From NCBI GenBank assembly GCA_040285825.1, contig JAUPSS010000010.1:1317038-1381037 (forward strand): DNA of 64,000 bases, written 5' to 3'. Both the position numbers and the translations under genes were made by a program. Every line of letters begins with the position of its first letter. The first letter of the stretch is position 1. Positions 11,201 to 53,900 of the stretch are shown here, in pieces. The notes under the pieces were generated by a model. It was given only the letters and a program-made list of their open reading frames with translations. It searched no databases and was not told where the DNA came from. The DNA comes from Eukaryota sp. TZLM1-RC (Eukaryota; Protista; Metamonada: BaSk clade).

Positions 11201-11934
11201 TTAGTTCTTAGTAGTTATAGTTATTTAGTTATTTGTTTATAGTTTTAGTTTCATATTCATACAAGCTGATTTATTTTGAAAAAAGGAAGAAGCAGTGTTG
11301 GCGCCCCAAGGCTTACATAATATGATTAGAATATAAATCAATTTTTCCTAATTGACTTTTCTTTACTACAATAGACTTTAGACAACACATATAAGCAACA
11401 ATAAACAATTCGGGTTATAACCAGTTGGACACTTTGAAGAAGTATTTCTGTAGTCCACTTAACATACTGTGTCAAATATTTCTCTTCCAGCAATTTCTCC
11501 AAATGATCGATTCAAAAAATTAATCTCCAAAGTCATGGCCATTTCAGCGTTATTGAGGAGTGTTTAGTTTGGTAACAAACCAAAACATATTGTGAAGAAT
11601 TTGCTTACTCAACATAAATGAACTCCATTCAAAGATTATATTCAAACAGAATGTAGTTTTCTCTGCTAATTTTTCAACAAATACTTGATACAGTTAAACT
11701 TGGTATTTTTATTTTTATCAAGTCTGACTTGGCCAGGTTAGTACTAAAAAACCCGCTTTCGAAATTTCAAAGACATTCGTAATAGTTCTGCTGCTGCGGT
11801 AGTTACTCAAATTTCCCTTCTTTATGGACTTCTTCTGAAAAACAACGAGTGGCTTTTGAACATGCGTTTTCGTTGTTTTTTTGTGGTTAAAAAATTTGCC
11901 CAATCATTTAATTATTAAATTTGGAAAGTCTCCA

Positions 11935-29363: not shown

Positions 29364-30466
29364 TGATGCCGTTAGGCAGATGAACACACGAAGGAGAGAG
29401 AGAAATCTGTTGTTTATTACTAAAACTGATTCATAAATGAGTATCACGTCATCAGTCGAAATACAAAGAAACCTACTAATTCAATTTGAGTTCAACAACA
29501 ACACTACTTTTTCCCACTTTTCTGAGGACAAATACAGTACTGGCTCAATAGAGGGAAGATATGGGGTTTGTTAAACTCTTTGGTGCATCGTTTGTGTGAC
29601 ACAAATAATTTACCTCATGTTTGATTTTAGATGGACAATCACGGGAGATGTGTCCAGGCTTGTGGCACTTGAAGCACGATTGATTTTTTAAATCCTGAGA
29701 GCGGCAAGAGGACCTCGTTTTAGTGCCAGCCGTACGTTCCACATCATTCACTGAGGTTTTGAAACCACGAGTCCATGAAGCAACCCTAGAGCAGTCCAAC
29801 AGCTCATCAGTAGTGGTTTCGACAAGAGAGTGAAGATCTGGGAATACATCATCTCGAATTCTCGCTAGTAGAGAACGTTGAAGACCTACGGGAAGAATTC
29901 CTCTGGCAAATCGATTCAGAAAAGCTGTGTCTGGTAACTTCAGTCCGGAAGCCCTACTCTTTACCTGGAGGAAACGTCGCAGGTAACAGGACATACGTTC
30001 TCGGACGTCACCAATACGGACATCAAGCTTCAGTTCTGACATAGCCAGACTAAAATCTTCGTACGTGGCGAACGATACGACAGATTGAAGATGTCTAAGA
30101 AGAACATCGTCACTGGAAGAGACGTCGGATTTCTGGAGAGATAGGGACTCTAACAGAAAAGAATCGACCAAGAGTCTTGCTGGAACAAGCTCTTTCTTAG
30201 AAGTCACAGAAGAATAGATCTTCCACTCTTGTAGGAACAAGAGAACACTTTCAACTTTCATGGAAGAAAGAGACGGGAGGTTGACAGAAGGAACAGTCAT
30301 CTGAAATAAGAAGGGCCAATAATTATTGATGCCGTTAGGCAGATGAACACACGAAGGAGAGAGAGAAATCTGTTGTTTATTACTAAAACTGATTCATAAA
30401 TGAGTATCACGTCATCAGTCGAAATACAAAGAAACCTACTAATTCAATTTGAGTTCAACAACAACA
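29364..30466 (-). mobile_element. Gag-only miniature LTR retroelement, copy 1 (1103 bp)
   Basis: Identical 140-bp LTRs at 30327-30466 and 29364-29503 (TG..CA); PPT; TSD CTAT; single gag ORF. Confidence 0.95.
29545..30300 (-). CDS. gag: Gag-like protein with CCHC zinc knuckle (251 aa)
   Basis: Intact ORF; CFKCHKPGHISRDC. Confidence 0.9.
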   Translation of the reverse strand: MTVPSVNLPSLSSMKVESVLLFLQEWKIYSSVTSKKELVPARLLVDSFLLESLSLQKSDVSSSDDVLLRHLQSVVSFATYEDFSLAMSELKLDVRIGDVRERMSCYLRRFLQVKSRASGLKLPDTAFLNRFARGILPVGLQRSLLARIRDDVFPDLHSLVETTTDELLDCSRVASWTRGFKTSVNDVERTAGTKTRSSCRSQDLKNQSCFKCHKPGHISRDCPSKIKHEVNYLCHTNDAPKSLTNPISSLY

Positions 30467-31191: not shown

Positions 31192-31384
31192 TGAGGCCTG
31201 TGACATAATGGTAACAGCAAAAAGGTAAGATAATTTATTGAATTCCACTGGCCCTTATAAAGGCCATCACTAGTGAAGTATCTATGATAATAAATGTACT
31301 AGACTAACTGTCCACACTACAACACTACCTTTTCCCTCTCTTAGATCTCGTACGAGAGCTATCAGAATTAACTGCAGGGGAATT

Positions 31385-31629
31385 TGTTTTACTGTGGACA
31401 ATTAGTCTAGTACATTTGTTATTATTGTTATTACTTAGACTTCACTAGTGATGGCCTTTATAAGGGCCGGTGAATTCAATAAACTAATCCTTACTTTTCT
31501 TAACCGTTATCATATATGGATAAGGCATCATTAATTATCGGCTCGACAGGCCACAATGATAACTCACCTTCCTCACCAAGGAAGAGTATTGTCCCTTCTT
31601 TGAAGGAGAACAATTCCCCTCCACCAACG
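31385..31629 (+). mobile_element. Single-LTR insert of a B-related element (5' LTR 31385-31530 plus ~100 bp internal)
   Basis: Homologous to the B LTR in opposite orientation; flanked by AATT at 31381-31384/31630-31633; removal restores host KTNSPAVNSDSSRTRSKRGKR*. Confidence 0.75.
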
Positions 31630-31828
31630 AATTAGTCTTAGATTTAGAATCGGAATTCATTCTGCGTTTTCTGGTAGTGCGACGACCAAGGGTACGCAAA
31701 TATGATTGGTATGCCTCAGTGCTTTTGATGTCAGCAACTAGGACAAACGATGTCTCGCCGCCATACCAAACTGCGGTGCAATAAGGAATTTTATTATTAT
31801 TCGAGTCTATAAAGTTGAAATCGACTAT

Positions 31829-32928
31829 TGTTGTTGTTGAACTCAAATTGAATTAGTAGGTTTCTTTGTATTTCGACTGATGACGTGATACTCATTTATG
31901 AATCAGTTTTATTAATAAACTCAGATTTCTCTCTCTCCTTCGTGTGTTCATCTGCCTAACGGCATCAATAATTATTGGCCCTTCTTATTTCAGATGACTG
32001 TTCCTTCTGTCAACCTCCCGTCTCTTTCTTCCATGAAAGTTGAAAGTGTTCTCTTGTTCCTACAAGAGTGGAAGATCTATTCTTCTGTGACTTCTAAGAA
32101 AGAGCTTGTTCCAGCAAGACTCTTGGTCGATTCTTTTCTGTTAGAGTCCCTATCTCTCCAGAAATCCGACGTCTCTTCCAGTGACGATGTTCTTCTTAGA
32201 CATCTTCAATCTGTCGTATCGTTCGCCACGTACGAAGATTTTAGTCTGGCTATGTCAGAACTGAAGCTTGATGTCCGTATTGGTGACGTCCGAGAACGTA
32301 TGTCCTGTTACCTGCGACGTTTCCTCCAGGTAAAGAGTAGGGCTTCCGGACTGAAGTTACCAGACACAGCTTTTCTGAATCGATTTGCCAGAGGAATTCT
32401 TCCCGTAGGTCTTCAACGTTCTCTACTAGCGAGAATTCGAGATGATGTATTCCCAGATCTTCACTCTCTTGTCGAAACCACTACTGATGAGCTGTTGGAC
32501 TGCTCTAGGGTTGCTTCATGGACTCGTGGTTTCAAAACCTCAGTGAATGATGTGGAACGTACGGCTGGCACTAAAACGAGGTCCTCTTGGCGCTCTCAGG
32601 ATTTAAAAATCAATCGTGCTTCAAGTGCCACAAGCCTGGACACATCTCCCGCGATTGTCCATCTAAAATCAAACATGAGGTAAATTATTTGTGTCACACA
32701 AACGATGCACCAAAGAGTTTAACAAACCCCATATCTTCCCTCTATTGAGCCAGTACTGTATTTGTCCTCAGAAAAGTGGGAAAAAGTAGTGTTGTTGTTG
32801 AACTCAAATTGAATTAGTAGGTTTCTTTGTATTTCGACTGATGACGTGATACTCATTTATGAATCAGTTTTATTAATAAACTCAGATTTCTCTCTCTCCT
32901 TCGTGTGTTCATCTGCCTAACGGCATCA
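31829..32928 (+). mobile_element. Gag-only miniature LTR retroelement, copy 2 (1100 bp)
   Basis: Identical 139-bp LTRs at 31829-31967 and 32790-32928; TSD CTAT; gag from 31994 with an A5-vs-A6 slip before the zinc knuckle. Confidence 0.95.
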
Positions 32929-33841
32929 CTATAATCTTAATAATTACAGTTTGTTTATCTCCAGCAGCAATGTTCTTGTGCCAATGTATATTTTCCTTGG
33001 GGAAGTCAGAGAAATATAATTTACAATGATTAAAACTTGCCGTGGACATCGAACCAGTGAAAAGATTGTTGAGTATTATACTTTTATTGGATTTCACTTC
33101 TTCAATAAAGAAAGGGCCAGCGAAGCAACCATGGAGTTTACCATTAGTTTTTTATCGCAAAACTAAGTCGCCTCTATTGAAAGGGTTCCTGTGTTTGTTT
33201 ACTTCAGGAAGTTGTTGAGCTTGTCTGAACTCTGTCTCTTCTTTCTTATTTGAAATTCTTTCAAGTTTTGCTTCCAGATCTTTAACAAAAAGTATATCAA
33301 CATCAGCTGATTTTATTAGTTCAAACATATAACTCGGATCAGCTCTAGGGCTGTGATCGCTACCAAACATTAAATTGTAAGGCGAATGACCAGTAACTCT
33401 ACTAACAGTTGAATTAATTTGAAGTTGTACAATTGGAATATATTCACTCTAATTGCAATAATCGCCAGAGTCCACCAAAATCTTTCTTAGACTTTGTAAA
33501 ATGTCTCTGTGTTGTCTTTCTACTAAACCATTGCTTTGTGAAAAACTAGTTAGTGAACGACTTACTTCAATGTTTAATAAATCGCATAACCCTTTGAGTA
33601 ATGCATTTGCAAATTCAATACCATTGTCACTATTGTTGCCTAAAGTCTACTGTAGTAAACAAAAGTCTGATTTATTTTCTATTCATATTATATAAGCCTT
33701 AGGGCGCCAACACTGCTTCTTCGCTGTTTCAAAATAAATCAGCTTATATGAATATGAAATAAAAACTATATACAAATAACGAAATAACTATAATAAATAC
33801 ATATAATCGATATAATATAAATAATCGATATAAACTAAGAA

Positions 33842-36800
33842 TTAGCTCCTCTTCCTAATTCTATTGCTGCGTCTAGGCTTCTTAGAAGGCGTAGACTCAT
33901 TGGAGGTACCTTGTCGTCGACTAATGGTACGTTTTCCAATTTTCTTGTTATCCTTACTAAATAACTTATAAGCTTCTGAGTGTCTAACCGGATGGAGTGG
34001 CTCTTCTGTTGTCTCACCGCCAAACCATTGAACAGTACAGAAACTACCTGAATCAGAGTGGTATTCTGAGAGGATTTTCTCTATAACGTGTTTTTCGGAA
34101 TCGCCTGCAGCGACTGCTTTGAGAAGCTCAATGTCCTGTGGATTTTCTGCGTTATAGATTTTGCAATCTTTCTTGGCAGCTTTTAATTCGGTGCCAGTAG
34201 TAAGATTCTTCAATAATAAAGTGGATTTGGATGGAAGGTCAGTAACTAAGAATGGTCCATTCCAAGATCCATGCAATTTATTATTTTGCTTGGTTTTACG
34301 TAAGACGTAGTCAGCAATATTAAATGCTATAAGACACGAATTAGTATTATCTACTGCAGACGGAGTATTTAATGTTTGGTGACGCTCTGCTTCTTCCCTT
34401 TTTTCTTGTAGACGAGTGTTTTTCATTTTTATGTCATCTAGTAAAGGGATATTAGTTTCAAATTTGGATAAATTTCCTAATATATTAGCAGGGTCTGTTC
34501 TTGGACTAATCGAAGAACCGTACATGAGTTCGTATGGGGTAAAACCAGTTTTTCTGCTTTTAGTGGAATTTATTAACAGTTGGGATATAAGTACGTAGGT
34601 AGACCAATTTCCGTAATCCTTGAAATCTATTAATAGTTTCCTTAAGCATTGGAGAACGTCTCTATGTTTACGTTCTACAAGTCCATTACTTTCTGAATAG
34701 TGGGGAATTGAGTTACTCGTCTCAATCGCTAATCTGTTACACACTATTTTAAAAGTCTCGTTGGCGAACTCAGGTCCATTATCACTATGAATTAACATAG
34801 GTATGCCAAAGATAGCGCAAACATTCCAAAATAAGGCATCTGCGGTTTTTAAGGCATTGAGTTCTTTTAAAGGGACTAAGATTGTATATCCAGTAAAAGA
34901 GTCTACAAATACTAAAAGATATTTAATTTCTTCGTTGTCGGAATTTAGGGGTCCAATTTTGTCGACGTTTAATCTGGCAAAAGGACGATCTGCCCATAAA
35001 GATCCTGTGGAAGGTGTTTTTGATCTTTTAACTGGAGCCGTTTTTTCACAAGTTGGGCATCTTTTGACATGATTAATAAGGTCCTTTCTCATATTGGGCC
35101 AGTAGAAATCGCTTTTGGATAGTTTGTGTAAACTATCGTTTTTGCTAGGGTGACCAGATTGAACCAAACCATGTATTAATAGAAGTGCCTGTTTTCTGAG
35201 GCTCTTTGGAATCAAAATTTTGTTTTTATTATTTTTCCAAATTTGAGTATTTTCATCTAGAATTGCATTTTCAAATAACGAGTCGTTGTTGTTTTTGGCT
35301 ATTTGTTGTTCAGATCTTATCTTAGAGAACCAAGAAGAAAAAATAGGTAGGTCTTGGTGTCTACTTAGAGATGAGATTGATGGGATGTCTTCAAGATCCG
35401 AATCAGAATCATCGTCTAGTGGAGGTATCTCGTAATTTGAAAGTAAAGTATCTGGTATATTTATGCTACAAATAGAAGGAGTTTCCTCGTTTTGATCCAA
35501 ATCAATATTCCTCGATAACATATCTGCCCAATGGTTGTCTTCACCAGGTTCGTGGACTATGTCAAAGTCGAATTCAGATAGTATCGGCAGCCATCTCTTT
35601 ACAATTCTATTTTTCTCTGGGGCTGTAGCCAGGAATGCAATGTTTTTGTGATCGGTGAAAATTGTTAAATGTCCAGTTAACAAGTAGCTTTCTAAACAAC
35701 TTTCAGTTAAAATCAACAGTATTGCATATAATTCTTTTTGTAGGGTGGACCATTTTCTTTGTGTTTCTGTAAGTAATCTACTATAGAATGACAAAGGTTT
35801 CACTTTCCTTTTATTTAGCGGGGTTCCTGCAGAGGAGTAGGGTTCAATTTCTTGCCAAATAACACCTCCTACTGCTACATCTGAAGCGTCAGTACTTATC
35901 AATACTCGCTTGCCCGAAGCTGGTAATTCAAGGGGCATGTGGTTTACTATTAAGTCTTTTATTTGTTTTAAGTAATCGTCATGCTTGCTAGTCCATTTAA
36001 TTATTCTGGGTTTTCCTTTAATTAGCTCGTTAATTGGAGCAATTAATTCAGAAATACCTGGAAGCCAATCTCTAATATAATTTATGGATCCTACCAATGA
36101 GCGAACTTCTTTCACTGTTTTTGGTCTAGGGATTCTCATCAAGGCTTCGATTTTTTTCCTACTTATAAATCTAGTTTTATCCTGGAAGGTACTTCCTAAA
36201 ATGTCGATAGGGTGTTTTGATGTTACGAATTTGCATTTACGTAAGCCTATATTTACACGTCTATTTCTGGCGCATTGGAGGACTCTTTGTAATCTCTTAT
36301 AAAATTCTTCGAATGTCGTTCCAACTATTATGATATCGTCAATGTATATGAAAACGCCATCTATTTGGAAAATTTCCATCATTACGTTTTGAAAAACTGC
36401 TGGGATGTTCTTTAATCCGAAGCAAGCTCTTTTAAACATGATTGACCTTCCAGGAATTGAGATTGATGTTTTCTCAATATCCTTCTCAGCAACTTTCATC
36501 TGCCAGAAAGCTTTTGGTAAATCAAGCGTGGCGATGTAATTTGCTCTACTCAAAAATTCTAATATATCACTAATCCTAGGTAGATTAGGCTCTACTGAAA
36601 TCGTATGGGCATTAACTCCATCTTTACCACTAAAGTCTCCAGTTAACCTGGGTTTCTTGCCGTCAGGATATATAACTAAGACAATAGGAGAGCTGAATTT
36701 ATAATTAGATTCAACTGCATAGCCCATTTCGATCAGTTCATCAAATATTTTGTTTGCTATTTCCATTTTGCTGGGATTTAACCGTCTAGCAGGTTTGTGT

Positions 36801-37890
36801 ACTATAGCATTCTCATCTCTAAAGGGGATTGTTAGAGGATTACAATCGATTCCTTTTCTATTAGGAGTTTCACTAAAAACATCCCTGAATAATTTTAGTA
36901 GACTCGTTAATTTTAATTTATTATTACTATCATCTTAAGTTATCTCACATCCAGATCTTGCTAATTGCTCCTCAAAATCAGAAGGACTTGGTGATTGGTT
37001 ATCTAAGTTTCCAATCGAATGTTGAGCGATCCTAGAGTCGAATTCTGATTTTGCATTTAACAAAGTGCGGTGTTCTTTGTCTAATCTAATGAAAAGACCA
37101 TCATCCGTCTGAAGCCCAAGTGCTTTTAACATGTCTGTCCCTATTAATAATTTGTTCGAACCCGGGATTATGGGAAGAGTATGTGTATAATGAACTTGTT
37201 GCGCAATGCTTCCTACGTTGAACGACAGAATACCAGTTGCACTCCCTAGCGATTTTGTGGATACGTTATTAGCTGGTAAGAACTTAATGGTATCCTTGCT
37301 ATTGATTGACATATGGCATTGTGCAGCTAAATCTGCAGTAATAACTGAACAAAACGCAGCCGAATCTATAGTCGCAATCATTTTAATATCATTAAATGAT
37401 ATCTCCAGTCTTGGAAATGGAGAACGCTGGGACCTGATGTGGTTTTCACTAACCGTAGAATTAATATCAAAAATACTATTGATATCAGAGCTGGTTTGGT
37501 GAATTTGTAGAGGAATTAAAAGATTTTGTTGAGCTGTTGGAAAGTTGTTGACCGGGTTTCCTAAATCGGTTGTTGATTGATTGTGATTGATTGCGTTGAT
37601 ATTTACCCGATTAGGAAAGTTGCCTGTCCTGTTGTTCCGGTTGCTGTTGTTGATCCGTCTGTGAGGAACCGTACTCGAACGGGTCGGTTTTGGCTCAGTA
37701 GGGGATGCGTATGATGATATATCCTCTGTTGTGTTGGTGTTATATATAGGTCTATATTGACCTCTTCCTTTATGTCCTCTAAAACGGCCTCCACGGCCTC
37801 TAAATTTAAATCTATGCACACGTCTACCACGGCCACCTCGGCCCCTTTCTACACTGCCTGTACTAGCAGGCGTCTCCTGATCTCCTAATC
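33842..37890 (-). CDS. pol: Pol polyprotein: protease, RT, RNase H, integrase, chromodomain-like (one in-frame TAA at 36935-36937)
   Basis: ATIDSAA; LDLPKAFWQ, YIDD; TDASD, KELYAI, FTDH; GHP..CPTC, IHSDNG, VERKH; FCTVQWFGG; protease and RT ORFs are in one frame. Confidence 0.9.
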
Positions 37891-40637
37891 TAAATCTTTC
37901 TTGGGAACTCTGCTTCTAGCACAACGAGGGTCTTTGCATTCGAATACAGTGTGGCCAACAGGATTGTTACCTTTGACGTTACTGCAGAATGTACAGAATT
38001 TTGACCCTTCTCGTTCATGCTTTTCAGGGATGTATTTGTGTTGAGGGGTTCCTCTTGACTTTCCACCTGATCGTCTTGCTCGTTTTGTTGGAGCCTGGGC
38101 TGATGGTGTTACTCCTCTTGAGTAAGTTCTCATTGCCGTGAGTCCCAAAGGAATATCTTCTTCGTTAGCCCTATTCCTTAGTACATCCATTGTAGGCTTA
38201 TTTCCTGCTGTGAAACAACAAGCGAGGAAATGTCTTCTCGTTGTCGATATCAAATCGAGTAGAGTTGTTCTGTTCGGTGAGTCCCACAAGGATTCCCTAG
38301 TCCATACTGGGAGGAGTTCGCTTGATATAGCGAAGTTATCCAAACCCATAAGGAAGTACTCGGCTATTAGAGCGGGAGATATGGTTATCAGCCCACTGCT
38401 TCCTCTAATTAAATCGGGGATGGTTAGGTCGGTCATGTAGGTGGTCATTCTCAAGACGTCTCCAAAATCTTCTACATAACGACCAGACTCGTTGTCAGCC
38501 TCATGCCTATTGTGGATTTTTCTCCGGTTTATTCTAGGCTTCATTAGGGCTGTACAAGCCTCATGATATGATGTGAATTGCGTTCTTTTTAACAGAAATA
38601 CCATGACGTCGGTGTCGGTATAGTCAACACCGAGTAAACCTTGACTCTGCCATCTAGATAGAACGCTAGGGTCAATCATGTTGGATATTCCTGTAGGGCA
38701 AGTGCTCATCATCATGCTCCTAAATAAATCATAATGGTGGATTGGGGGTCCGAGCTTATCTGTTATAGCTGGGTCAATCCTTACCAAAGGCTGTGTTGTA
38801 TCCCTGGTGATCTCGTGGCGTATATGTTTGGGGAGATCTTTAATCCTATCTTGGGTTATTTCTGCTTGGCCTTCTCCAAATAGCTGGGTAGCTATCATAA
38901 AGGCTCTGGTCCAATCTGATTGACCTGGGGCTTCAAAGCTTCTATTAGCTATCTTTCGCCCGTATTTATCCCAAGTTTGATATTTTAAAAGAAAAGCTAT
39001 GATAGACATATTGTTGATATGGTCGTCAGCGGATAACCGAAATCTGTTATAGTCGGTATCCTTAGACCGTGGATCAATCTGTCTATGAAGGCTACTAGCT
39101 ATGCTCATGTCAATAGCTCTTCTTGAGGATTGTAGGTCCTCAATACGCATAGATCTGTCGGAAGAAGAGTTTCTTACTGAGGGTTGAGGAGGAGCCGCTT
39201 CTCCAACGACTGGCCCGTTCAACTCTATGTCTTCTCCGATTTCACATTCCATAGGTTGGGAGGAAGTTGGTTCTTCCTGAGGAGCAACGTCTTGTCTAGT
39301 TACAGGTTCCGGGACGTTCACTGTTGGAACGTGTTCGGGTATGCTGTCAATAGAGCAGACCTGTATTGGTTGGCTTTTTTCAGAAATTATAGGGGCTGCA
39401 ACAGGCAGTTTGGGAAGGTGGAGAGATGTGGATGGATCTCCCGTTACCCATTGTCTAAACTCTCGTTGTTTCGTGAACGAGTTACCATGATGTTGGATGT
39501 AGTTGTTAGGACGGCTCCTATACGTGGATACAGCTGATCGTTCCGTATGAATGTTATTTAAAGCGTCTGCATCGAACCAGGGTGTTACTGGTTCAAGCTT
39601 GTCTTGTTCACTACTATCCTCCTTCTCCATAAATTCCCTAAAATATGTGGGAGCACCCTCTGTCAGCTCCGTGTAATTATGGCTTACCGTATCAAAGTTA
39701 GGATCAAACCAGGCAGGCAATTTGGATTGTAGGATGTCTTCCGAGTCGGTCCTACTTCTCTGCTCGATGGAGAGAAACCTTATTCTCCTGCCGTGTTGAT
39801 CTAGGAAGGAGACTTTCCAATCCAATCTGTCTTTGATGGGAAGGGACATCATTTCGTTGATTCTCTTGTGCATACCCGAGACTCTGCGGCGGCGCTCTGC
39901 GTTACGCCCGAATGTCTCTCTACTCAGTTTATCAAGCGCCTTTATGAGTTCATTCCTTTCATTGAGGGGAATTTCCAATACCTTTTGGGTATCCCCAATC
40001 ATTCCGAGGGTCTGGAAACCAACGTTTCTGCCTCTTTTTTGGATGTAACTCCATAAAGGAGGAAGCTGCTCGAACAGACAGAAATCTGTTGGTTCGAGGT
40101 AAGCCTCCGCATCCTCTCTTAATAACTTGTAGACGTGTATAACAAGAGTCGTCTTTCATCCAGTTGAGATTGAATTTCTTCATATTCTCCTAATAGGGAA
40201 GACGTGTCTAAGGTGGGATTTCCATCCGTTCTCTTTGAAACAGGTTCTAGAATTGGGAGGGGAGAGGGAGCCGGGTCCGTTCTCGTTGCCTCCGAGGACA
40301 ATTCTGTATACTTGAGGAGAGAGGGAGCCGGGTCCGTTCTCGTTGCCTCTTCCATTGCTTTGAGGGGAGAGGGAGCCGGGTCCGTTCTCGTAACCTCATC
40401 TGTTTCTTTTTTTCTGAGGGGAGAGGGAGCCGGGTCCGTTCTCGTTACCTCTTCCATTGCTGAAGATGGAGGGACCTCGTCCACTCTTTTATCTTCTTCT
40501 ACTTTTAGGGAGGGGGAGGTGGGATTCGGGTCCGTTGCCTCGTTACCCTCTATATTATGTATATGTGTCACTGGTACCTGCTGCATGTTGGATGGGGGAT
40601 TAGGGTCAGAGATATCTTGCTGAAAGATGTCTGACAT
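37885..40637 (-). CDS. gag: Large Gag-like protein (~915 aa; one 1-nt frameshift near 40155)
   Basis: First ORF after the 5' LTR; C-terminal CTFC-x10-H-x4-C; the -1 frame EAYLEPTDFCLFEQL matches the A' copy (EPFLESMDLYPFEQL) and links the two ORFs. Confidence 0.75.
40258..40450 (-). repeat. Coding minisatellite in gag, 4 x (A/V)TRTDPAPS
   Basis: GAGAGGGAGCCGGGTCCGTTCTCGT repeated four times on the plus strand. Confidence 0.9.
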
Positions 40638-41256
40638 GCTGTAAAAGTTTTTGGTTTCTGGGGATGTTCACTAGTAAAGTGCTGAAGTTATGGTATACCT
40701 TTTGACTTTAAAATGGCCAATAATTATTGTTGCCTAAAGTCTACTGTAGTAAAGAAAAGTCTGATTTATTTTCTATTCATATTATATAAGCCTTAGGGCG
40801 CCAACACTATGAATCAACAGTGGGATACCAAAAATTGATACTACACTCCATAGGAGGTGATTGGTTGCCTCCAATGCATTCAATTCCTTTGCAGGGCAAA
40901 TGATCGTATACCTAGTGAACGAATCTACAAAAACCATTAAATATTTGAATCCATTATCATTCTGTTGTAATGGTCCAATAGTGTTTGCGTTTAATCGTGC
41001 AAAAGGACGATCAGCCCAAAGAGAACCAGATGATTCAATGACTTTTTTAGGCACATGTGCCGTCTTTCGACATGCTGGGAATCTCTAAATATGATTGATC
41101 TTGTCTTTGCGCATGTTTGGCCAAAAATAATCACTATCGAGTAATTTCTTTACACTAGTCGTCACACTGGGTTGGCCAACATTTGCATGTCTATGAATGA
41201 TAGTCAAAATCTGCTTCTTTAAACTGTCTGGGTTAACAATCTTCCCACGTATGTTG

Positions 41257-41286
41257 GTATACAATTGTATACAATTGTATACAATT
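41257..41286. repeat. 10-bp tandem triplication GTATACAATT
   Basis: Read directly, inside decayed B pol. Confidence 0.9.
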
Positions 41287-43693
41287 TGTAATCTTTATAA
41301 TTATCAGTGTTTGAATCAACATCTATAAGTTGTTCTTGCCTAATCTTTGAGATCCAAGTATCAAATAAATCAAATTTAGTATCCTCAACTGCTTCTTTTT
41401 ATGCAGATAAGCTATTGATCATGGGTAGCTCAATTGTGGACTGTTGAGTCATATTATCTTTTAACAAATTAACCGTAGTCAATAAATTTAAATAGGGCAA
41501 TTGTTCTTCAACTTTGTGAGGGGCTAAATTTCTCACTTGTTGGACTCGAGGGGTTTTGGTTTTGGTATCGACCAATCTAGACAACATGTCTGTTCAATAA
41601 TTCTCCTCGCCTGCAGTGTGGACTACATCAAAATTGAATTCTGACAATATTGGTAGCCACCTCTTCACAATTCTGTTCTTTTCAGGAGCTGATATATGGT
41701 ATGCTGGGTTTCTGTGATCAGTGAAAATTGTTAATTTCCTCGAAATTCAATAATTTTCTAAACTACTGTCAGTGAGAATTAGTTAAATTGCATACAACTC
41801 TTTCTGAAGATCAGACCAATTTTTTTGTGAAGTTGATAATAATCTGCTAAAGAAGGCAATAGGTACAACCTTTCTCTTAGTTAATGGTGTCGTAGGATCT
41901 TTAGGTGGGTTAGCTTCTTGCCATATTACTCTACCTACAGCCACATCGGACGCGTTAGCACTTATTAAAATTTGCTTATCTTCTGAGGGCAATTCAAGAG
42001 GGATATTTGCCTTCATTAGATTTATAATCTTATCAAAAGCCTCGTCATGATGAGAAGTCCACTTGATCTTTGACGGTTTGTTTCTGGTTAATTTGTTGAT
42101 TGGTTCTATCAAATCTGACAAATTCGCCAGCCAGTCACGTATATAATTGATCGAATTTATAAAACTCCTAACTTCAGGTAATGTCCTAAGTTTGGGTAGA
42201 TTGATCAGTCCTTCAATCATGGATTCATCAATATAACCGGTTCTTTTTCAAAAATACTGCCTAGAATTTTTATCTTATCTTTGCAAGTGGTAAAGCTACA
42301 CTTGGGTTGGCCCACGTTAACTCTAAAACGTTTGGCGAGTTCTAGGACTGTAACTACTCTTGATAGAAACTCATCCAAGCTACTATTATAATATCATCGA
42401 TATAAATAACAATACACCTCTGGAATCAAAAATTTCCATGTTTTGGAAGACCGGAGAAACGTTTTTCAAACCAACACAAGCCCTTTTGAAGCTGACCGAC
42501 ATCCCGGGAATTGATAAGGAAGTTTTATCAATACCCTCTTTTGTAATTTTGAGCTGCCAAAATGCCTTAGGTAAATCTAGAGTTGCTATATAATTAGCTT
42601 CACTTAAAAACTCTAAAATGTCGCTAATCCTGGCCATATTTGCCTCTACAGGTTTAGTCAAATCATTTACTCCACCTATACCACTCAAATCGCCAGTTAA
42701 TCGTAGTTTCCTGTGATCAGGGTAAATTAAAAGACAAATAGGACTACTCAATTGAGACTTTGCGGGCACAGCAAATCCATTACAAATATATTCGTCAAAA
42801 ATTTCCTCAGCTACCCGTTGTTTTTCTGGGTTTTATCTTCGAGGTTTCCTTTTGACGACCTTACTTTTGTCATAAAATGAAATGGTCATCAGCTGACAAT
42901 CAATTCCATCCACGTGAGGTTGCCCTCTAAATACATCTGTATTTTTCGAGTAGCACGACTAGGCGTTCCTCATCCCTTATGTCATCCAGGCATATTCTAC
43001 AGACCAACTCAACTAAATCATGTCTGAATGTGGAATGCCCAACATCATTACCTCAGTCTGATATATTACTCAATTGTTCTATGAATCTAATTGGTTGACA
43101 AATTCTATTATCAAACTCATATTCAGCGTTCAAGATGATGCAATGTTCGCGATCCAAATCAATAATGAAACCGTACTCCATGCATAGCGCCAAGGTTTGC
43201 AATAAGTCTCTTCCGATCAACAGATTGTTGGTACCAGGAATGATCTGGAATTCGATTCTTATAAACACTTGATTGGCCAAGCTACTCACATTTTGAGCAA
43301 AAACACCTCTTGCACATCCCAGGGTCGTGGAGCGAATACCATTTACCGATAGGTTTTCGACGGTCACATTGTCATGAACCGTCATATTACATTTAGAGGC
43401 TAAATCCATTGGTAATGCTGAAAATGCAGCTCCATTATCAATTTCGCCCTGTACTTCCGCGTTGTTTATTGAGCAGTTCAACCAAAATTTTTCGTTAGAA
43501 CTTGTTTGGTCTCATGTCACCCTAGATAGTCTAACACTGTGGATAGAACCCACAGGATTATGCGACTTTCTAAATATTCTTAATGGGTTTAGGTGTCTAT
43601 AATTCGAATTTATTTTGCTCATTTTATAAATGGTATTGGTTGAATTGTGTGTAAGGTTATTAAAAGATGTGTATTCATCTAATTAATTACTAC

Positions 43694-43835
43694 TGATGCC
43701 GTTAGGCAGAAATACCAAAGAAGTAAAGAGAGAAAAGAACATTTATCAATAAAGAAACCCGTTCTTCAACGAGTGCCACGTCATCAAGTGAAATCCTGAG
43801 ATAACTACTAACCTTATTTATCAGTAACTATAACA
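43694..43835 (-). mobile_element. Solo LTR (142 bp) related to the gag-only element LTR
   Basis: Shares the 17-bp end TGATGCCGTTAGGCAGA and CACGTCATCA; TG..CA; TSD CTAC at 43690-43693/43836-43839. Confidence 0.85.
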
Positions 43836-46536
43836 CTACTAGACAATTTACGCTTGTCACCACCTTTTCGTTTTTTGTTGCCGGGTCTACCTACTGCGGA
43901 AAAGCAATTGTCTTCAGCGTGTCTATTTGTATTACAGATGCCACACCATTGCCCAGGAAGAATTTCCTTGGGTTGATGTTTAAGTTTTCCACTACCCTTA
44001 GAACGTTTAGGATGTATTCATGAGAAACTTCTTGACTAGTTAGCTCCTCTGAACGAAGATTTGTTGCCAAATATATTTTCACATTTGATAATTCCAGGTT
44101 CTCGAATTCTTTCAATTTTTGCACGAAGGCTTGTCCAAAAGCATATATAGCGTCGTCCAATTTGCTAAGGTCACTACTACCTTGAGGGAATTCATCAATT
44201 CAATTTCCATAGGTATTTACCAATTGATCGTGAGTTTTCTTGTTGATTTCCTCTAGGATTCTTTCAGCAGAAAAAACATCAGAAGGCTGATTGTCGGTTC
44301 CCGGCATTGTGGTTGACTGTCTTATTATGTCAATGAATTGCTCTATAAAAGTGTTCCAAATCACTTCGGCAGTTCTTCGACTAATTTCAGAACACCTTGT
44401 CGCACTTAAAGCTTGATTCACCTCGGAAATGGTCTTATACTGGTTGTTTAATAACAAAAAATTTTCAAATCTCGTGGTTGGTTGCGTTTGTCCCTAAAGG
44501 CTTTACGCGATCTCATAAACGATTTTGTCATTGTATCGAAACGGTGGTTTTGATCATCTCGCTAAAACATGATCCTAACGAAATCATATTCATATTTAGG
44601 TTGCCCATATTGAGTGAAAGGTTGGAAAAGTCTAATAGGTCCATCACAGACTCTTTTAGTCTTTGCCCAATCAGCAAAATTGACTACAAAGTCGGAAAAT
44701 TTTTTGAAATCGAATCCATCATCCAGTTTCTTTTATTTTTTTTTCCCAAATTTTTTTGATTAGTTTCTCCTTATTGGTTACAGATCTATATTGAAAGCCT
44801 GTAAAAAAACAAGAATATCTTTCGGTGCTATTGAGCTGCCTGTAGCTACCAATTACAGTTAACGGGATTGGTGTATTTTGCCCATATGACGGAACAGATG
44901 ACAATCTCCTTCCTGGAAATGACACTACTGACGGAGTTACAAACATATTATTCGCTTCCTCTGAAGGTAGCATTTGGCTCAAGTACAGGATATGTTTATA
45001 TTTTAGTGATTCGTCCTGTTCCGGAAGTTTTTGGGTCTCAGGTTTAAAATCAGCCGAATCAGGGGCGCTCTTAGACTCTTGAAGAATCCCTTCCACATGA
45101 TGTTTAAAAGGTAGACATTTACCCTTGATCATCACAGTGTCGAGAACTCTTTGGTCGGGGTAACTATCTAACCATGCCTTAAGTTCGCAATCCATGCGTC
45201 AAGATACACCAATTTAATCTTGTTGGGTCCGACTCGTTGTTCTTTTAATTCAATGGTTTTGATTCCTTTTTTTACAAAGGTTTCCTTGTGATGAAATTGG
45301 ATAGTATCGCCTCTATTTGCAACGAATCGACCTCCCAACAGCAAGAGAACATCAATCATTCTGTTTTTTGGGTGCACATTGTCTACCAGGAAATGCCTTA
45401 CCGTTCCCCTGAGTAAACGACTTTTGTGATAATGAGGATACATTTTGGCAATCCAAAACAACCTGTCATCATACTCATCACTTCCACGGATACAATGTTT
45501 CCCCATGGGGAGTCGTTCGTCAGGAATGGCATCCATGTGTCAAAATGCAGGTATTGGGGTAGTTGCATGTCACTTTGTACGTGGTGCGTCAAAGTAACAA
45601 TTTTTAGGCTCTTCAGCTACAAAACTAACAGAGCTCTCCGAACATTGATCTTATCGTGCCAAAAGGTCGATTTCTTGATTTTATCGTTGGAGAACCAAGT
45701 CGTCCTGCGTATATCCACGTGAGCTGCCAAATAACAAATAACCATCGTTTCTTTAGCAACTCATACCTATCCTCTATACAAGAAGAATCCGTTATAAAAT
45801 TGGATTCATTCTTGATGGCAACCGCAAACTCATCATTGCTTCAATCTCTAATGACATCAGGTGGGCTAGCAATGATGGACTGGAAAAAGTCTCTAATTTA
45901 TGGGCGACTCTCTTCTTCAATTCTTGACGATATCACTTTTGAGAAGTGCAGTATTCTGTGTCTGTCCATTCAATTTCAGAAGGGTCAGTGGAAGGTTTAT
46001 CACCATCCCCATTTCCAGTCCCATCGTTTGGGTTAGATGTTCCCGTCTGAGGGGAGGTAGAATCCAGTAGAAGACAAATTTTTATGAGCTTCTTCGAACG
46101 GGGAGGGAGAAGGGTTTGTGTTAGAAGTGTCCTCTCCATTTCCTTCACTCATTTCAGAAGGAAGCTGTTGGTTTCCCATGCCAAGAAGTAACTTCATCCC
46201 ATTTGGGAAAATGTTATCTGGGTCATAGGTGTGGTTGCCTATGTTATTCTCCGTAGGAAGAGCATTCTTTACAAGTGAAGTGCTTCTCTCCTCAGATGGA
46301 GGATTACTCTTCCGCGAGGAAGGACTCTCCTTATGTGGAGGAATACTCTCCTTAATAGGAGGGATGTTACAGCTAACATCATGGCCGCTTAAGCCATTAG
46401 TTAATGATGCCTGTGACATAATGGTAACAGCAAAAAGGTAAGATAATCTATTAAATTTACTGACCCTTGCAAAGGCCATCACTGGTGAAGTGTCTATGAT
46501 AATAAATACACTGGACTAATTGTTTACAGTACAACA

Positions 46537-47159
46537 ATATTCCCGAAAAGAATCTTTTAAATTTAAAATACACTCTTCAAACATTACAGAAACGATTGAC
46601 TGGAATGTATGAAGATGATCTTTATAATAATATACGCCGCTCGGCTGTTTTAAATCAAGATCTTCACTCATTGTTTTTGGAAAAGGGTGTTTGTGAAAAT
46701 AAGTCATCAGATTCGTCACATTTTGTAACCATTGTACCACGAAGATTTGGATTGTGTGCCACTAATGAAGCATTTGTAACAAAAATTAGATTCTATTTGA
46801 ATATTCCCATTAATCAATTATTATTAAAGGAAAAATGTATTTGTTCGAATTCACCACAGCTCATTCAGCGCCATGCTCTAAATTGTTCAAAATTGATATC
46901 TTATCGTTCTTTATCACATGATGCTGTTGGAGACACTGTTTTAATATGGCACGAACTGCAAAAATCTTGTGTGTCAAAGAGCCTCTGCTGAAAGAATCAC
47001 TGTGATTAAATAATTTTAGTTCTGATGACAAAGGTGATATATACTGTGATTGGATTGAGAACTCTGGAAAATTGTTGTTGACTTTGTCTCCTGTGTTGTT
47101 GCAAATGACTTTTTGGTTTAAAGAAGAAAACTTAATTTTGTAGATGCTCTTGAATTTAA
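46537..47159 (+). pseudogene. Old N1 copy, middle piece
   Basis: TGMYEDDLYNN..EKCICSNS..HALNC, homologous to 49500-50120. Confidence 0.85.
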
Positions 47160-50100
47160 TTCTTTTTTCCTTCCTCTACATAAAACCGTTTAACTGAAAA
47201 CCTGGCTGAACAGTGACCATTGCTTCTATTCTTTCTTGTTGATGCCTGAATCAGTTTCTGATTCTAATGGAGTCAAAAGAAAGAACGATAGACAACAAGA
47301 TGCTCAAGACGTCCTTTCCACCTCTCCTCCTCAACCTCTTCTGTCTTCATGTTTGGACAAAAAAATTCCTGATCAAGAATTTTTTTTAGAAAATCACGAT
47401 GAAAACAAAGTTTGTTCAAAAACGAAGCCACGCTCCTACAGATGCTCAAAGTGTCGACAACAAGGACATAATGCGCGAACATGCCCCAATGTTGGAAAAA
47501 ATGATGTGACAAATTCTGAAACAAAATGTAAAAGAAAATATATTAGAAGAAAAGAGTCTAAGGTAGAACCAATAAATGATGATCCACAAGTTGTTGCAAA
47601 ACCAGTTAGCAATTGATTGAAGCACAAAACTTGCAACAATTGTGGTATTTCTTTTAGAAAAAATGCAAAAGGAAAAACTTCTGATCGATGCTTGAAATGC
47701 CGCATAGTTGATATCTACCATCCTCCCATAAGAATACTTCAAGAAATTCATCCGTCAAAATGCAATGAATTTGCTTTCGTTTTTCAAAGATTTATGGATC
47801 AATTATGTAAAGGAAAGTATGCTATCAATAATCTTTGGGAATTCTTTGGTTCTTTTTGTCCTCCTTTTGAACAAAATTTCGTAAATAATTCCGAAAATTT
47901 AACTAATATAGCACCGAGAAATCAGTCATCTGAAAAATTAAGTAAAATTTTTGAAGAGAAATGCTTTGACAACAAATGGTCCAAGGCTTTGTCAGCTTTA
48001 AGTCCCGGAGTTAAAGCACCCAACAATGAAAATACAATAGATAAACTAAAAGTACTTCATCCTTATGAAGACCCTATAATGGATCAAAATTTTTACGGCA
48101 CTTACTGGGAAAATTATCCATTGATGCCATCAGAAGTTTTTTCGGTGATAAAAAAGAGACCACGCGGTAAGTCTGCCGGACTTTCTGGTATTACTATTGA
48201 TCATGTAAAAGCCGCAATTATTTCTTCAGAGGATTGTCTTGGTTTATTAACCAAATTTTTCAACATGGACAACTCAAATATCCAGTTGAATTAAGAAGTT
48301 CTCGTTTGACTGCACTTGTCAAAAATTCAAAAATGGATGTTCGTCCTATTGCAGTCTCTGAGAGCTTACAAATTATTTTTTCTGCGTGTTGCTTAAACAG
48401 GTTCAATGAGAAAGCAAAAAAGATTTTATTACCCTTTCAATATGGAATTAATACCACGGATGGAGTCTCTTCAGCGATATTTGCTACTGATGTATTATTT
48501 CGCCAAAATGAATCCAATGTTTGTATGTCATTGGATTTTAGTAATGCTTTCAATTCACTAAGTCATCGCAGTATCCATAATGCTCTATTGCAATATATGC
48601 CGGAATTAATGCCATATTTTCAATCAACATATTGCACATATTCTAATTTACATTTTGATAATAGCAATTTAAGTTCATCAAGTGGTGTAAAGCAAGGAGA
48701 TCCGTTAGGACCTCTTTTGTTTTGTTTGGCCATTCATCCTATTTTATTGCAAATTCAAGAGATGTTTCCTTCACTAAAAATGATTGCATATATGGATGAT
48801 GTTGTGCTTATTGGTGATTTAAATATTGTGAAACCAGCAACTGTATGTTTTAAAGAATTATTTACCAAAATTGGTCTCCGACTTAATTTACTTAAATGTG
48901 TTTTGTTATCGAATTTTCCAGTTTCCACAATAGTTGATGGTATTGAAAGTCAAGCCAAATTATATTCAATTGATGCTATTCGTCATTTGGGTTCGTTTTT
49001 AGGAAATAATAGTGAAATTACCAAAAAATTGTTTGAAAAGTTGAAATCAATTTCTGACAAAATTGACCGAATGATGAATTTAGATATAAAAAACACATCA
49101 AATTTACCATTATAAGACTGTGTTTTAGTTCCAACTTCAATCATATATTTCGATCTACAAATCCTCTCATCACTAGACCTTTGGCTCAGAAGTTTAATGA
49201 ATTACGTGCAAAAGTTCTGTCTCAATTAATGGGATGTAAAATGTTCCAAATTCTAGATCATGCTTACCTTAGTCCACATTATGGCGGTTTAGGGTGGACG
49301 AAGGCTTCTATTCTTACCTCGTGTGCTTTTGTTGGTGGATGCAGAAATGCAATCTTTGAGTTTTCCGAAAGATTTGCAGATTGGGAAGATTTATTGATGA
49401 CAACACAAAGTTCCACTGTTTTTGCATTAAATGAAAGAATTTCAAAAATTGATGTAGAAAAACGGGGTCGATGTTTTCCCCAATCATTCAATGGCAATAT
49501 TCCAGAAAAAAATGTTTTAAATTTGAAGTACACTCTTCGAACATTACAGAAACGATTGACTGGAATGTATGAAAAAGATCTTTATAATAATATATGCAGC
49601 TCGGCTGTTTTAAATCAAGATCTTCACTCATTGTTATTGGAAAAGGGTGTTTGTGAAAACAAGTCATCAGATTCTTCACTTTTTGTAACCATTGTACCAC
49701 GAAGATTTGGATTGTGTGCCACTAATGAAGCACTTGTAACAAAAATGAGATTATATTTGAATATCCCCATTAATCAATTATTATCAAAAGAAAAATGTAT
49801 TTGTTCGAATTCACCTCAACTCACTTTGCGCCATGCTCTGAATTGCTCTAAATTGATAACTTATCGTTCTTCATTACAAGATGCTGTTAGAGACACTGTT
49901 TTCAATATGGCACAAACTGCAAGAATATCGTGTATCAAAGAGCCCCTGCTGAAGGAAACACTTTCTCTGAATAATTTTGGTTCTGATGATAGAGGTGATG
50001 TATACTGTGATTGGATTGATAATTCTGAAGCTATTGTTGACTTTGTCTCATGTACTGTTGCAAATGATACTTTGGTTCACAGAAGAAAACTTAATCCTGT

Positions 50101-50499
50101 GGCTGCTCTGGATTTTAAAGCAAAAGCGAAACATAGAAAATATGATAAAGATATTGCAGAGGCTAATGTCGATAGAAATACACAGCTGGTTTTTATTGCT
50201 TTCCCATTTTCGATAAATGGAAGATTATCAGTTGAAGCAGAAACTTTTTTGAATGACTTACAAAAAATGGTGCAAGAAAAAACAATGAAAAGATTTGATA
50301 TTTTTTTATGGCGTTCACGGATTCAATTTGCCATTATTAATATATTACCACGGTTTTTCAACCGAATAAGAGAAGCTTTAGCTAGACAGCAAGCAGATCA
50401 AGATTTTGTAGAGGAAATCTTGGTTCAATGATAGTCGTCGCATTAGTTATGAGTTATTTTAATTAAGTGTGCAAATTCAATAAATAATACAAGTAATTA
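47160..50499 (+). mobile_element. Near full-length RLE-type (CRE-like) non-LTR retrotransposon N1 copy 2, inserted in an older N1
   Basis: From ATG 47242: CCHC (CSKCRQQGHNARTC), CxxC pair, RT with YMDD, Zn finger, RGD..D..K..KY endonuclease, stop at 50431; in-frame TGA at 47614, frameshifts at ~48265 and 49088; possible TSD AATTTAA at 47153-47159/50500-50506. Confidence 0.9.
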
Positions 50500-50875
50500 A
50501 ATTTAAGGCTAATTTAAGAAAAACATAGAAAATATAACAAGGTTATCGAAGAAGCTAAAACTAATAGGAATAGACCACTTGTATTTATTGCTTTCCCGTT
50601 TTCGATAAACGGAAGACTAGCAGTAGAAACAGGAACTTTTTTCAATAATTTCCAAAAAATGTTTCAAGAAATAACATTGAAAAGATTTGATATCTTTTTT
50701 GGCGCTCTCGGATTCAATTTGCCATTATTAGTAGATTGCCTCGGTTTTTCAATCAAATTAGAGAAGCTTTAGCTAGACAGTAAGCATATCAAGATTTTGT
50801 AGAGGAAGTCTTGGTTCAATGAATTTAGTCCCATTGATTATGAGTGTATTTTGTTAAGTGTGCAAGTTAATAAGC
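50500..50875 (+). pseudogene. Old N1 copy, 3' piece
   Basis: Resumes at the KHRKY region and repeats the N1 3' end in degenerate form. Confidence 0.8.
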
Positions 50876-50989
50876 TAAGAATTTTGTGAACACTGTCAAT
50901 CAATAATCAATAATCAGAATTGCAATTAAATGGATTGGTGGTTCTCAACCCAAACACAAATCCATACACACTAAATCAATCATCAATCA

Positions 50990-53900
50990 ATGCTTCCTCC
51001 CTATGTCATCCTTCTTCTCATCTTCTATTTCACTGTCTTGGCCACTGAAGTTCACTGGACCTCTGGTGATGGTGGCAGCTTTTCTGATGTCGAGAATTGG
51101 TCTTTCTCAGATGGTGACAACTTTTATACTTATGGTTTAGTCTATGTTATTCAACATGATATTCAAGTGACGTTATACGGAGACTTACTTCCCAACATCC
51201 ACGAAATAAGACTTGGTGGAGGTTCTTCCTTACCGCATCTCAAAATCAGTGCATCTCTTTCAGTTGAAAACTTTGTTTGGCACAGTGGTAGTCTCGAGAT
51301 CGACACCCAGTTATTCAACATTCACTCTACTTTACATCTTAAATCAGAGAGTTCTAAAGAACTACGCTCAGGCACTTTACTTTTATTTGGTTTCTTTCAA
51401 GTTTTTGATAGTTGTACTCTTACTCTATTTCCGAACTCTGAACTAGGTGTTCGCCATGTTTATAATAAAGAAAATAAAGTTTTAATATCACCCTCATCAG
51501 GTGCTTTTGAGATAGCAAAAACTGGTGGAGATCCATGTGTTGAGTTCTTTGTTCCAGTTCAACTGGAAAGCAATAGCCATCTAAAACTAGGAGTTAGTGC
51601 ACATTTGATTGGAAGGGTTGTGGTCAATGAAGGTGCAGTTTTGGAGTTTAATGAAGACTCGGAAATGAATAATGAAATAGAGTTGAAAGGGGAAAATTCG
51701 GAACTCAAAGTTGATGGTTGTACTGTTCAATTTAAGTCAAAATCCTATTATTCTGCAGTAGAAAATGATTTATTAGTTTATTTTAACTTTAGAGATCCTC
51801 CTAGTAATGGTTATTTCAGTGATTTCTTTGGTAATTTCTTTGCTCAAATTAGAGGTAATACTCAGCATGAAAGTGATCATGTTTCAATGCCTGGTACTAA
51901 TGATTTTTTGCTTAGCAGTTTCAGACCTGCCCCTACTGGTCCTTTCACTATCTATATGGATTACGACATCAGATCCTCAATCTCGGGCGACACTACTGTC
52001 CAATTTGGCCTAGAATCTAGCCAATCATCTTGTAATTTTGCTACAGGATTTCATAGGGAGATGCGTTCTATCTTTGGTGTTCCTTATGGCATCGGTCATT
52101 TTGATTTTACACTTTCCTCAATTTCGACACAAACTATAGTTACTGATCAGCTGATTGGTAGAGATTTTGAAAGTAGGTTTCGTCCCGTAGCATATACTGT
52201 ATCCAACTCAGATGTCACAGTAATGAACATACATGATGGTTCTTTCCACATCAAAGATCATAGTTCTTCTCCGCTAAGTCCATGCCAACGTACTTTTCCT
52301 TTGGATTTTAGTGCTTTACTTGATTTCAGCGGTACTGTTGTTAATAGGCATAATGGTAAACTCCGTGATTATAGAGTTTACAATAAAGCTATTAGCGAAG
52401 TAGAGGCTACCACATTGTTTTCCCAGTCAGGAAGTGAAGGAATTGTTGAAACCACCACAGTCCCTGAATTTAGTGGACAGACTTCAATTACGTTGAATGA
52501 AGGTAGCGCAATAATACCATTTCCAGCAGAATTTGACTATGTTTATTATGTTGGAATTTCTATTTTTAATAGCCAGTTTACTTGCCTTGGGAATACGATA
52601 GTTGTCATAACTGGAGATGTGGTTGTTGATTCAGGAGAAGATATTACTTTAAATTGTAAGATAAAACTTGAAGGTAGCATGACGATCATGACTGGAAATG
52701 TTATTTTCTCCAAAAATTCTCAGATTGATGGCAGTCTTATAATTGAAGAAGATGGACTGGTTTCGTTTAAGGATGCTATTTACACCTTCACTACTGATTC
52801 TATCCTTCAACAATACCCCAAGTCCTTTACTACGACAGAGAATACAGTGATCAATTTTGACGGACTTTGGAAAGGAGAATTGATGCTTATCTACCGGGAT
52901 GGATTTAATTTACTGGAAGATTCTAGAATAGACACTCCTATATTTGGTTTGGATTTTGAAGGTGATTATCATTACGACTTGGAACATTTCAACTTTTTAA
53001 ACATTGTGAATCTTCGTATCTTATCAGGAAACATTTTCTTTTTACTCGAGACCAATGATGTTGCACACTTTGAGAGCATTCATGTCGAAAAAGGATCTGT
53101 TACCTTTAACAATGGCGAATTAGTGACAAATAGTTTAACTTTCAACCCTGAATCTACCACTAGTGCTTCATTTACTAATACGCAGCTAGGTTCTTTCACT
53201 ACTTTGGCCTTAACAAAGGGTCATTTAACTTTGGAATATGATGATGATTTTGACATAGCTTTTGATGTTGAGTTGGAAAATTCCGAGCTAACTTTGAAAA
53301 ATTCTGTTAATTATAACTTTGATGATGTAGAATTAGTAGATTCTACTAGAAATGGTGCTGGTAATTTGGTAGCTAAGAGTTTGTCAATTGCCAATAGTGA
53401 ATTTGCTGAAAGTGGTGAAACAATTTGTAATGAAAATTGTCAAATTTTAGATCATTCCCCTAATAATAACAAAATAAGTGACCTTCATAAGCTTACATTT
53501 AATAGTGGAGGTCAAATTTGTTCTGGAAATGTCAAGTTGCAAATATTAGATGGACAATTCATTTTACCTTTAGATTTAGTTTTCCAACTCGATTCTACAC
53601 TTACTGTTTCAACCTCATCCAAAACAGATTTCCAAATATTGGGTACACTTAATATAGAGGAAGAAGGTATTTTGGTAATTGAGAATTTATTTGATTTACA
53701 AGGCACTATTAATGTAATTGGTAAATTAGAATTAGATGTAGATAATACCATTGGTGGAACTTTAAAGGTTTTAGATGGTGGTGAAGCTATTTTCAAAGGA
53801 GATTCTTATACATTTAACGAAAATTCCAAGCTTGAAGTTCATCCAAATACGCTAACTTTACAGGAACCTATTGAATTAACAATTGAAGGTACTTATACAG

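Follow-up and report, generated by a model that had tools for sequence, protein, structure and literature searches.

Three primer types are recognised for LTR retrotransposons, namely a whole tRNA, half a tRNA and the RNA's own 5′ end (as classified in PMC6317226), and several groups of elements fit none of them. One such group is GalEa (Donnart et al., 2017; PMC5445492), Ty1/Copia elements of ascomycetes that have no PBS, in which a Conserved Hairpin Site, CHSeq1, adjoins the 5′ LTR, and whose palindrome has been unexplained since 2017. The 9-nt GalEa sequence is palindromic together with the last A of the LTR; its authors state that no model fits, point to a DIS and, in the available text of their paper, propose no dimer-priming model (PMC5445492). 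A downstream complementary arm, CHSeq2, is present in 39 of 44 families (PMC5445492, supplementary file 3). A different solution is described for Tf1, in which RNase H cuts an RNA duplex and so frees a primer for the site just after the LTR (PMC7175516, PMC10085805).

Here we describe a palindromic site at the 5′ LTR ends of Ty3/Gypsy elements within a 64-kb window, by which we mean the whole stretch of DNA that was analysed. The site occurs six times, in three families: A and its relative A′, the gag-only copies G1 and G2, and the old element B with a B-like fragment. As in GalEa, no PBS is recognisable, the palindrome lies right after the 5′ LTR, includes the LTR's last letter(s) and is centred between +4 and +5, and one of the two CHSeq1 forms, CTAATTAGT, has its core TAATTA in common with the sites here. 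The two systems differ in superfamily and host (Copia in ascomycetes, Gypsy in a protist), in the extent of the palindrome (10 nt in GalEa, 12 nt plus GGC/GCC here) and in domain order, as the integrase follows RNase H here, unlike the order in Copia. They also differ in that a CHSeq2 arm is not conserved here, folds of +1 to +50 leaving +1 to +7 unpaired in A, A′, G1, G2 and B. The elements are thus not members of the GalEa family but appear to be built the same way.

Other systems share some of these properties. Tf1, Tf2, Tj1 and the Tf1/sushi group are likewise Ty3/Gypsy elements without a tRNA site (as described in PMC7175516, PMC10085805 and PMC4600332), but the first 11 nt of Tf1 itself are reported to pair with its PBS in cis, and no such LTR complement is present here; the target duplications given for Tj1 and Tcry1 are of 5 bp, whereas those here are of 4 bp. 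The Skipper chromoviruses of Dictyostelium are also protist Gypsy elements, carry a chromodomain, have neither a tRNA site nor an LTR complement, and are described with their priming unexplained, but they carry a polypyrimidine stretch and, in the available text, no palindrome (PMC5006619). Retroviral DIS and Ty1 PAL motifs are, like the sites here, short palindromes of the 5′ leader and pair two genomes, but they coexist with a tRNA PBS and lie off the LTR boundary (as described in PMC4974528). The word palindrome has 0 occurrences in the Helenus paper, and the openly available papers that we searched describe no Gypsy element whose primer site is palindromic. The first-pass annotation of this DNA had implied that the feature was without precedent; given the published parallel in fungal GalEa it is less unprecedented than that. 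The site is a real, conserved, non-canonical primer-site feature of a little-known Gypsy clade. It has a published parallel, and the priming mechanism proposed for it lends itself to precise tests.

Elements carrying the site

The features of the elements, and of one solo LTR that served as a control, are as follows.

40728–40806, minus strand: 5′ LTR of A, 79 bp, TG...CA; duplication ATAG; 98.7% identical to the 3′ LTR; empty-site contigs
33634–33712, minus strand: 3′ LTR of A, with a purine tract ending CAG just before it and no motif after it
33630–33633 and 40807–40810: target duplication of A, ATAG
33842–36934, minus strand: RT-RNase H-integrase frame of A (Pfam), with a degenerate chromodomain-like tail
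36935–40667, minus strand: gag-side frames of A (182 and 756 aa) and its protease frame (326 aa)
6149–6240 and 11296–11387, plus strand: LTRs of A′, a deleted relative of A with later insertions inside
30327–30466 and 29364–29503, minus strand: LTRs of G1, 100% identical; duplication ATAG
31829–31967 and 32790–32928, plus strand: LTRs of G2, 100% identical; duplication CTAT
46405–46536 and 31192–31324, minus strand: LTRs of B, 87% identical; duplication ATAT
31385–31530, plus strand: 5′ LTR of the B-like fragment, for which no 3′ LTR was found
43694–43835, minus strand: solo LTR (control), 67.6% identical to the gag-only LTR; duplication GTAG; no motif after it

Element A is a 7.2-kb Ty3/Gypsy element in which protease, RT, RNase H and integrase follow in that order (Pfam) between TG...CA LTRs, with a polypurine tract and a target duplication, and the best solved relative of its RT-RNase H-integrase frame is Ty3 Gag-Pol (E 1e-65). 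An in-frame TAA (36935–36937) separates its protease and RT frames; as the close relative P0001 aligns across this position, the stop is probably private to the window copy. The closest proteins to A come from Eukaryota sp. TZLM1-RC (93%), GEM-RC1 and TZLM3-RCL, all metamonad protists; the code TZLM1-RC appears where the metamonad genus Skoliomonas is described, and the available text of the genome paper on these named relatives (PMC11316075) yielded no tRNA or retrotransposon analysis. In an RT-RNase H tree (77 sequences, midpoint-rooted, with 44 of 120 matches dropped for short cover and no named Tf1/sushi reference included) the group of A forms one clade with support 1.0 on a long stem. 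Pfam finds a Chromo domain in two basal members of the clade, P0038 and P0040, and none in A or in the integrase at 317–1585, although the tail of A aligns into the P0038 chromodomain (E 7e-6, 26% identity). The nearest proteins to B, P0030 and P0045, share 52–57% identity with A. The protein of the gag-only copies is similar to Gag from other branches (P0040, P0023, P0029).

Within families the LTRs are 81.5% identical between A and A′, near identical between G1 and G2, and 76% identical between B and B-like. The first-pass annotation had called the LTRs behind the motif otherwise unrelated, which is right for A and the gag-only copies (38.6% global identity) and overstated for the set as a whole, since the six sites represent three families only. 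With its LTR pairs 98.7% (A) and 100% (G1 and G2) identical, the site is present in young copies.

A nested stack occupies 31192–46536, where A, the solo LTR, B-like and G2 all lie inside the old element B, and the empty site for A is seen in contigs within a B-type integrase gene. The two gag-only elements between 29364 and 32928 are 1.1 kb long, point in opposite, outward directions and each have an identical pair of LTRs; late in its gag, G2 has a frame change. From their sequences they look like active non-autonomous elements. Target duplications are of 4 bp and mostly of the form N-T-A-N (ATAG, ATAG, CTAT, ATAT and GTAG, with CATG/CATA at A′), so the integrase may well favour certain target sequences. 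The purine tracts at 33713, 11295, 29504, 32789 and 31325 all (5/5) end in (C/T)AG right before TG, a junction that may mark the plus-strand primer cut. The LTR of A (40728–40806), only 79 bp long, starts TGTTGGC; in the B and B-like LTRs TGATGGCC lies internally, some 78 nt before the end. The LTR may have been shortened at its start in the A lineage. At 317–1708 an integrase frame 94% identical to P0006 is followed by a purine tract and then by 52 nt that start TG and end CTAACA; this TG...CA stretch is possibly a very short LTR without GGC, and the window has no second copy of it.

Elsewhere in the window, long arrays of coding repeats of about 1026–1040 bp run in opposite orientation (13203–27807 and 50975–63710), with weak G8 matches and an ephrin-receptor-like cysteine domain, and probably encode giant surface proteins. 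Several RT copies of non-LTR type without integrase, and a hAT transposase fragment, lie at 2544–5844, 9159–10850, 46534–50873 and 7574–8745, some of them inside A′.

Position, sequence and symmetry of the site

The site comprises 20 nt, the last seven letters of the LTR (−7 to −1) and the 13 letters beyond it (+1 to +13). The LTR boundary was set by comparing 5′ with 3′ LTRs together with the 4-bp target duplications, and for A also by the empty-site contigs.

40715–40734, minus strand: focal site of A, GGCAACA (−7 to −1) followed by ATAATTATTGGCC (+1 to +13), an imperfect 20-nt palindrome of the form GGC-2nt-CA-8mer-TG-GCC
40718–40729: perfect 12-nt palindrome CAATAATTATTG across the LTR end of A, its centre between +4 and +5
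6234–6253, plus strand: site in A′, same site as A
30314–30333, minus strand: site in the gag-only copy G1, same site as A
31961–31980, plus strand: site in the gag-only copy G2, same site as A
46392–46411, minus strand: site in the old element B, with T at +1, A at +8 and C at +5
31524–31543, plus strand: site in the B-like fragment, broken in the window copy and perfect in related contigs

The coordinates given in the first-pass annotation were confirmed for all six sites, and the motif matches at six of the six 5′ LTR ends in the window against a mean of 0.19 in shuffles (largest 2); a seventh element, with the integrase ORF 317–1585, has its 5′ end beyond the window and so falls outside this count. 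That the motif is conserved after every 5′ LTR, as had been claimed, needs one qualification. Its first part, GGCAWCA, is the LTR's own end and also closes the 3′ and solo LTRs, four of six exactly and two as GACAACA and GGCCTCA, whereas the letters +1 to +13 follow 6/6 5′ LTRs and 0/6 3′ or solo LTRs in the 64-kb window. The part specific to the 5′ junction is thus +1 to +13 only. Over the 20 positions A and G1 have 19 letters in common, whereas they agree at just 10 of the 33 positions before the site and 11 of the 27 after it, and the sequence after TGGC differs between families, as previously noted.

The perfect 12-bp palindrome of the first-pass annotation is found in four of the six window sites (A, A′, G1 and G2), where the A and gag-only families read CA-ATAATTAT-TG, and it is broken in the window copies of B, by a central mismatch (C at +5), and of B-like, by T at +8 and C at +9. 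A 12-letter palindrome is nothing rare here, since the AT-rich window has 23 of them and its shuffles 20.85, but all four CA-N8-TG palindromes in the 64 kb sit on a 5′ LTR end. What is not due to chance is therefore the place of the palindrome and not its existence.

B is old, its LTRs being 87% identical, and B-like is a fragment; we therefore predicted, before the contigs were examined, that their relatives would carry a perfect palindrome. In each of the two runs that cover the B-like stretch (depth 15.6/15.6 and 11.8/11.8), its contigs depart from the window at three positions, with T>A at 31538, C>T at 31539 and T>C at 31543, these runs being a single sample (X1 = X2) in which depth is no copy number and differences near contig ends are possibly unlisted. 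A third B-like contig (depth 30.5) continues ATGGCC from +8, and none of the contigs shows the window's own B-like letters. The site of the B-like family in the contigs is CA-TTAATTAA-TGGCC, again a perfect 12-mer, with +1 and +8 swapped, so that the A-T to T-A exchange noted earlier is real at the level of the family. A leader contig of the B family (depth 3.85) aligned up to +5, which appears to fit T at that position, and the C at +5 in B is probably private decay. From the LTR divergence and the contigs of this single sample we infer that the imperfect window copies, B and B-like, are decayed. In the A family (depths about 46–80) a single contig (8.2 of 46.3) has a listed difference within the site, an A>G change at +4, which keeps G-U pairing. 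The outer GGC is not invariant, since the LTR of a B-related contig (depth 5.2) closes with AGCATCA and not GGCATCA. Run X3 gave no contigs on the B-like stretch or over the site of A, and run X4 gave none.

The covariation that the first-pass annotation had asked for is thus present in the contigs, as one event only, the change from A-T to T-A at +1/+8. By our own estimate (4 of 28 or of 78 pairs are symmetric, and this share is multiplied by 1/3) such a paired change would arise by chance with a probability of about 0.02–0.05. Each of the three families keeps its four middle letters symmetric, which counts for a dimer, since central symmetry is needed by a dimer and not by a hairpin loop. 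The left ends of the G, B and solo LTRs hold no mirror image of the GGC at −7 to −5, and symmetric recognition by integrase thus fails to account for that GGC.

A pattern scan of metagenome DNA gave 61 loci that are chance matches, 0 of 61 having a protein or DNA match to the elements (+1/+8 paired in 32 of 61). Scans for related loci gave 147 candidates among metagenome contigs and 27 among viral ones, none of which was confirmed. The two GalEa forms were not counted as covariation, since CTAATTAGT occurs mostly in low-GC families and may come from RIP mutation.

Candidate primers at the LTR boundary

What, then, could prime these elements? Shuffle and pattern tests bore out the earlier statement that the sequence holds no tRNA-shaped or Tf1-type primer site: TGG lies at +9 and not within the 0–5 nt of the LTR expected of a canonical tRNA site (criterion in PMC6317226). 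The 64-kb window contains no tRNA gene, and Rfam over 40600–40900 gave one match, far below its gathering score. We propose, tentatively and at a little less than an even chance, that the palindrome stands in place of a tRNA site and primes reverse transcription via an RNA dimer, in which one genome is cut to prime its partner. The grounds are position, conservation across unrelated LTRs, one paired change and no other primer in the sequence, while the pairing comes from folding and the cut from analogy with Tf1.

By folding, either family site has a two-RNA dimer at −17.4 kcal/mol and a hairpin at −2.7 kcal/mol (the window sites as they stand give dimer energies of −8.6 for B and −5.8 kcal/mol for B-like). 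The predicted symmetric duplex has 12 contiguous pairs plus three per side past a 2-nt bulge, and 92 of 7154 20-mers in A and 7 of 1084 in G1 are at the site's dimer energy, the site among them. Two packaged genomes would, in this folding model, pair over −7 to +13, and the +8/+9 bond of one RNA would face the LTR end of the other, where the element's RNase H might cut in trans, as by analogy with Tf1. If the cut fell after +8, the primer would stay bound by 13 pairs, predicted at −10.3 kcal/mol, with its 3′ end on the partner's +1, exactly at the LTR boundary as the first-pass annotation had envisaged, and its UG facing the terminal CA; this new 3′ end would then prime the partner genome. A cut after +6, leaving a 2-nt extension, is the other candidate. 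Since the site is a palindrome over the terminal CA, plus-strand DNA copying the attached primer would regenerate +1 to +10 and allow the second strand transfer, which would explain why the symmetry reaches over the LTR end. Counting against dimer priming are a predicted primer duplex that is A/U-rich and only 13 pairs long, and the imperfect palindromes of two of the six window copies.

A palindrome is equally expected of a pure dimerisation signal, which would predict the same symmetry and the same paired change. That the site is only a dimerisation or packaging signal of the retroviral DIS or Ty1 PAL type, the primer being something else, is in our judgment unlikely, though a serious contender: palindromes are implicated in Ty1 dimers (PMC4974528), and the gag-only family carries the exact site of A, as would suit co-packaging. 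Against it, DIS motifs are described as coming in addition to a PBS (PMC5445492), whereas here the first 40 nt show no primer site besides this one, the site is in the exact primer position and its symmetry is registered on the terminal CA.

Priming by a fragment of host RNA, annealed at +1/+2 with several G-U pairs, is distinctly improbable. The best candidate would be a 5′ fragment of a Ser/Leu-type tRNA ending in the D loop, given a putative likeness to the D arm. At +5, +9 and +13 the letters found in the decayed copies are C or T throughout, which a fixed partner rich in G could tolerate, but the +9 C occurs in the window copy alone and the +5 C is probably private too, one fixed RNA cannot follow +1 and +8 changing together, and a site selected by a tRNA should have C, not T, opposite G. 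Internal tRNA primers do exist in Copia lineages (as described in PMC6317226 and PMC10886601), but half-tRNA primers are reported only in Copia in a plant survey (PMC6317226), and the letters of the site alone, +1 to +13 of A or B, have no U33-NNN-purine anticodon loop in their complement.

Rather poorer still are the prospects of an intramolecular hairpin, nicked or recognised in cis. A hairpin does form in folds of A, G and B, and the loop variants +4 G and +5 C leave it intact, but it is so weak (−2.7 kcal/mol, as above) that it compares badly with the dimer, a nick after +8 would give a 2-pair primer, and the loop symmetry kept in three families would be needless. A second hairpin, made of TGGC and a downstream arm, was also tried and rejected: it appears in folds of A′, B and B-like but not in folds of +1 to +50 of A, G1 and G2.

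We regard self-priming of Tf1 type by the RNA's own 5′ end, possibly splice-made, as very improbable. Basal members of the clade carry a chromodomain, and in folds the U5 end can pair with the LTR stretch TGATG/TGTTG, in the manner of an arm of the Tf1 pretzel. In the decayed B-like copy there is an LTR match of 9–10 pairs that 0 of 300 shuffles equal over 13 nt (range 0–1.3%), but with the family site 11–31% of shuffles do as well, and for an LTR duplex in A, A′, G1, G2 and B the figure is 35–99%. An 11-nt or so complement of the PBS in the 5′ LTR, as in Tf1/sushi, was accordingly found in the decayed B-like copy alone and not with the family site. A splice-made primer would match over at most 6 nt among 4–49 candidate introns per LTR, with no match in A. 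A further candidate that was rejected is RRTTAG, conserved close to where the B, B-like, G and solo LTRs begin; it could pair with +2 to +6 only (5–6 pairs) and is absent in A.

A full-length tRNA bound at TGG, 8 nt past the LTR, is the least credible primer of all, for although TGG stands at +9 in five of the six window sites, it would leave +1 to +8, the most conserved part, unexplained, and the letters after TGGC vary by family, so that three tRNAs would be needed with acceptor strands CAUUUUA, CCUUCUU and UUAAGCG, unlike usual tRNA 5′ ends.

Consequences of the proposed dimer priming

We return to the proposal that a dimer of genomes primes these elements. Whether it amounts to a fourth way to start LTR reverse transcription, in which a dimer genome is cut at an LTR-boundary palindrome with neither a tRNA nor a 5′-end self-primer, we hold with slightly more reserve, as a possibility somewhat short of even. 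The dimer model names both the primer and its 3′ end, which makes for a sharp test. If it is true, dimerisation would be tied to priming and the element would be freed from the host tRNA. Unrelated non-autonomous elements could then ride along via 13 common letters, as the gag-only family appears to do. The same geometry in GalEa Copia elements would, moreover, mean that the mechanism was reached independently in both superfamilies.
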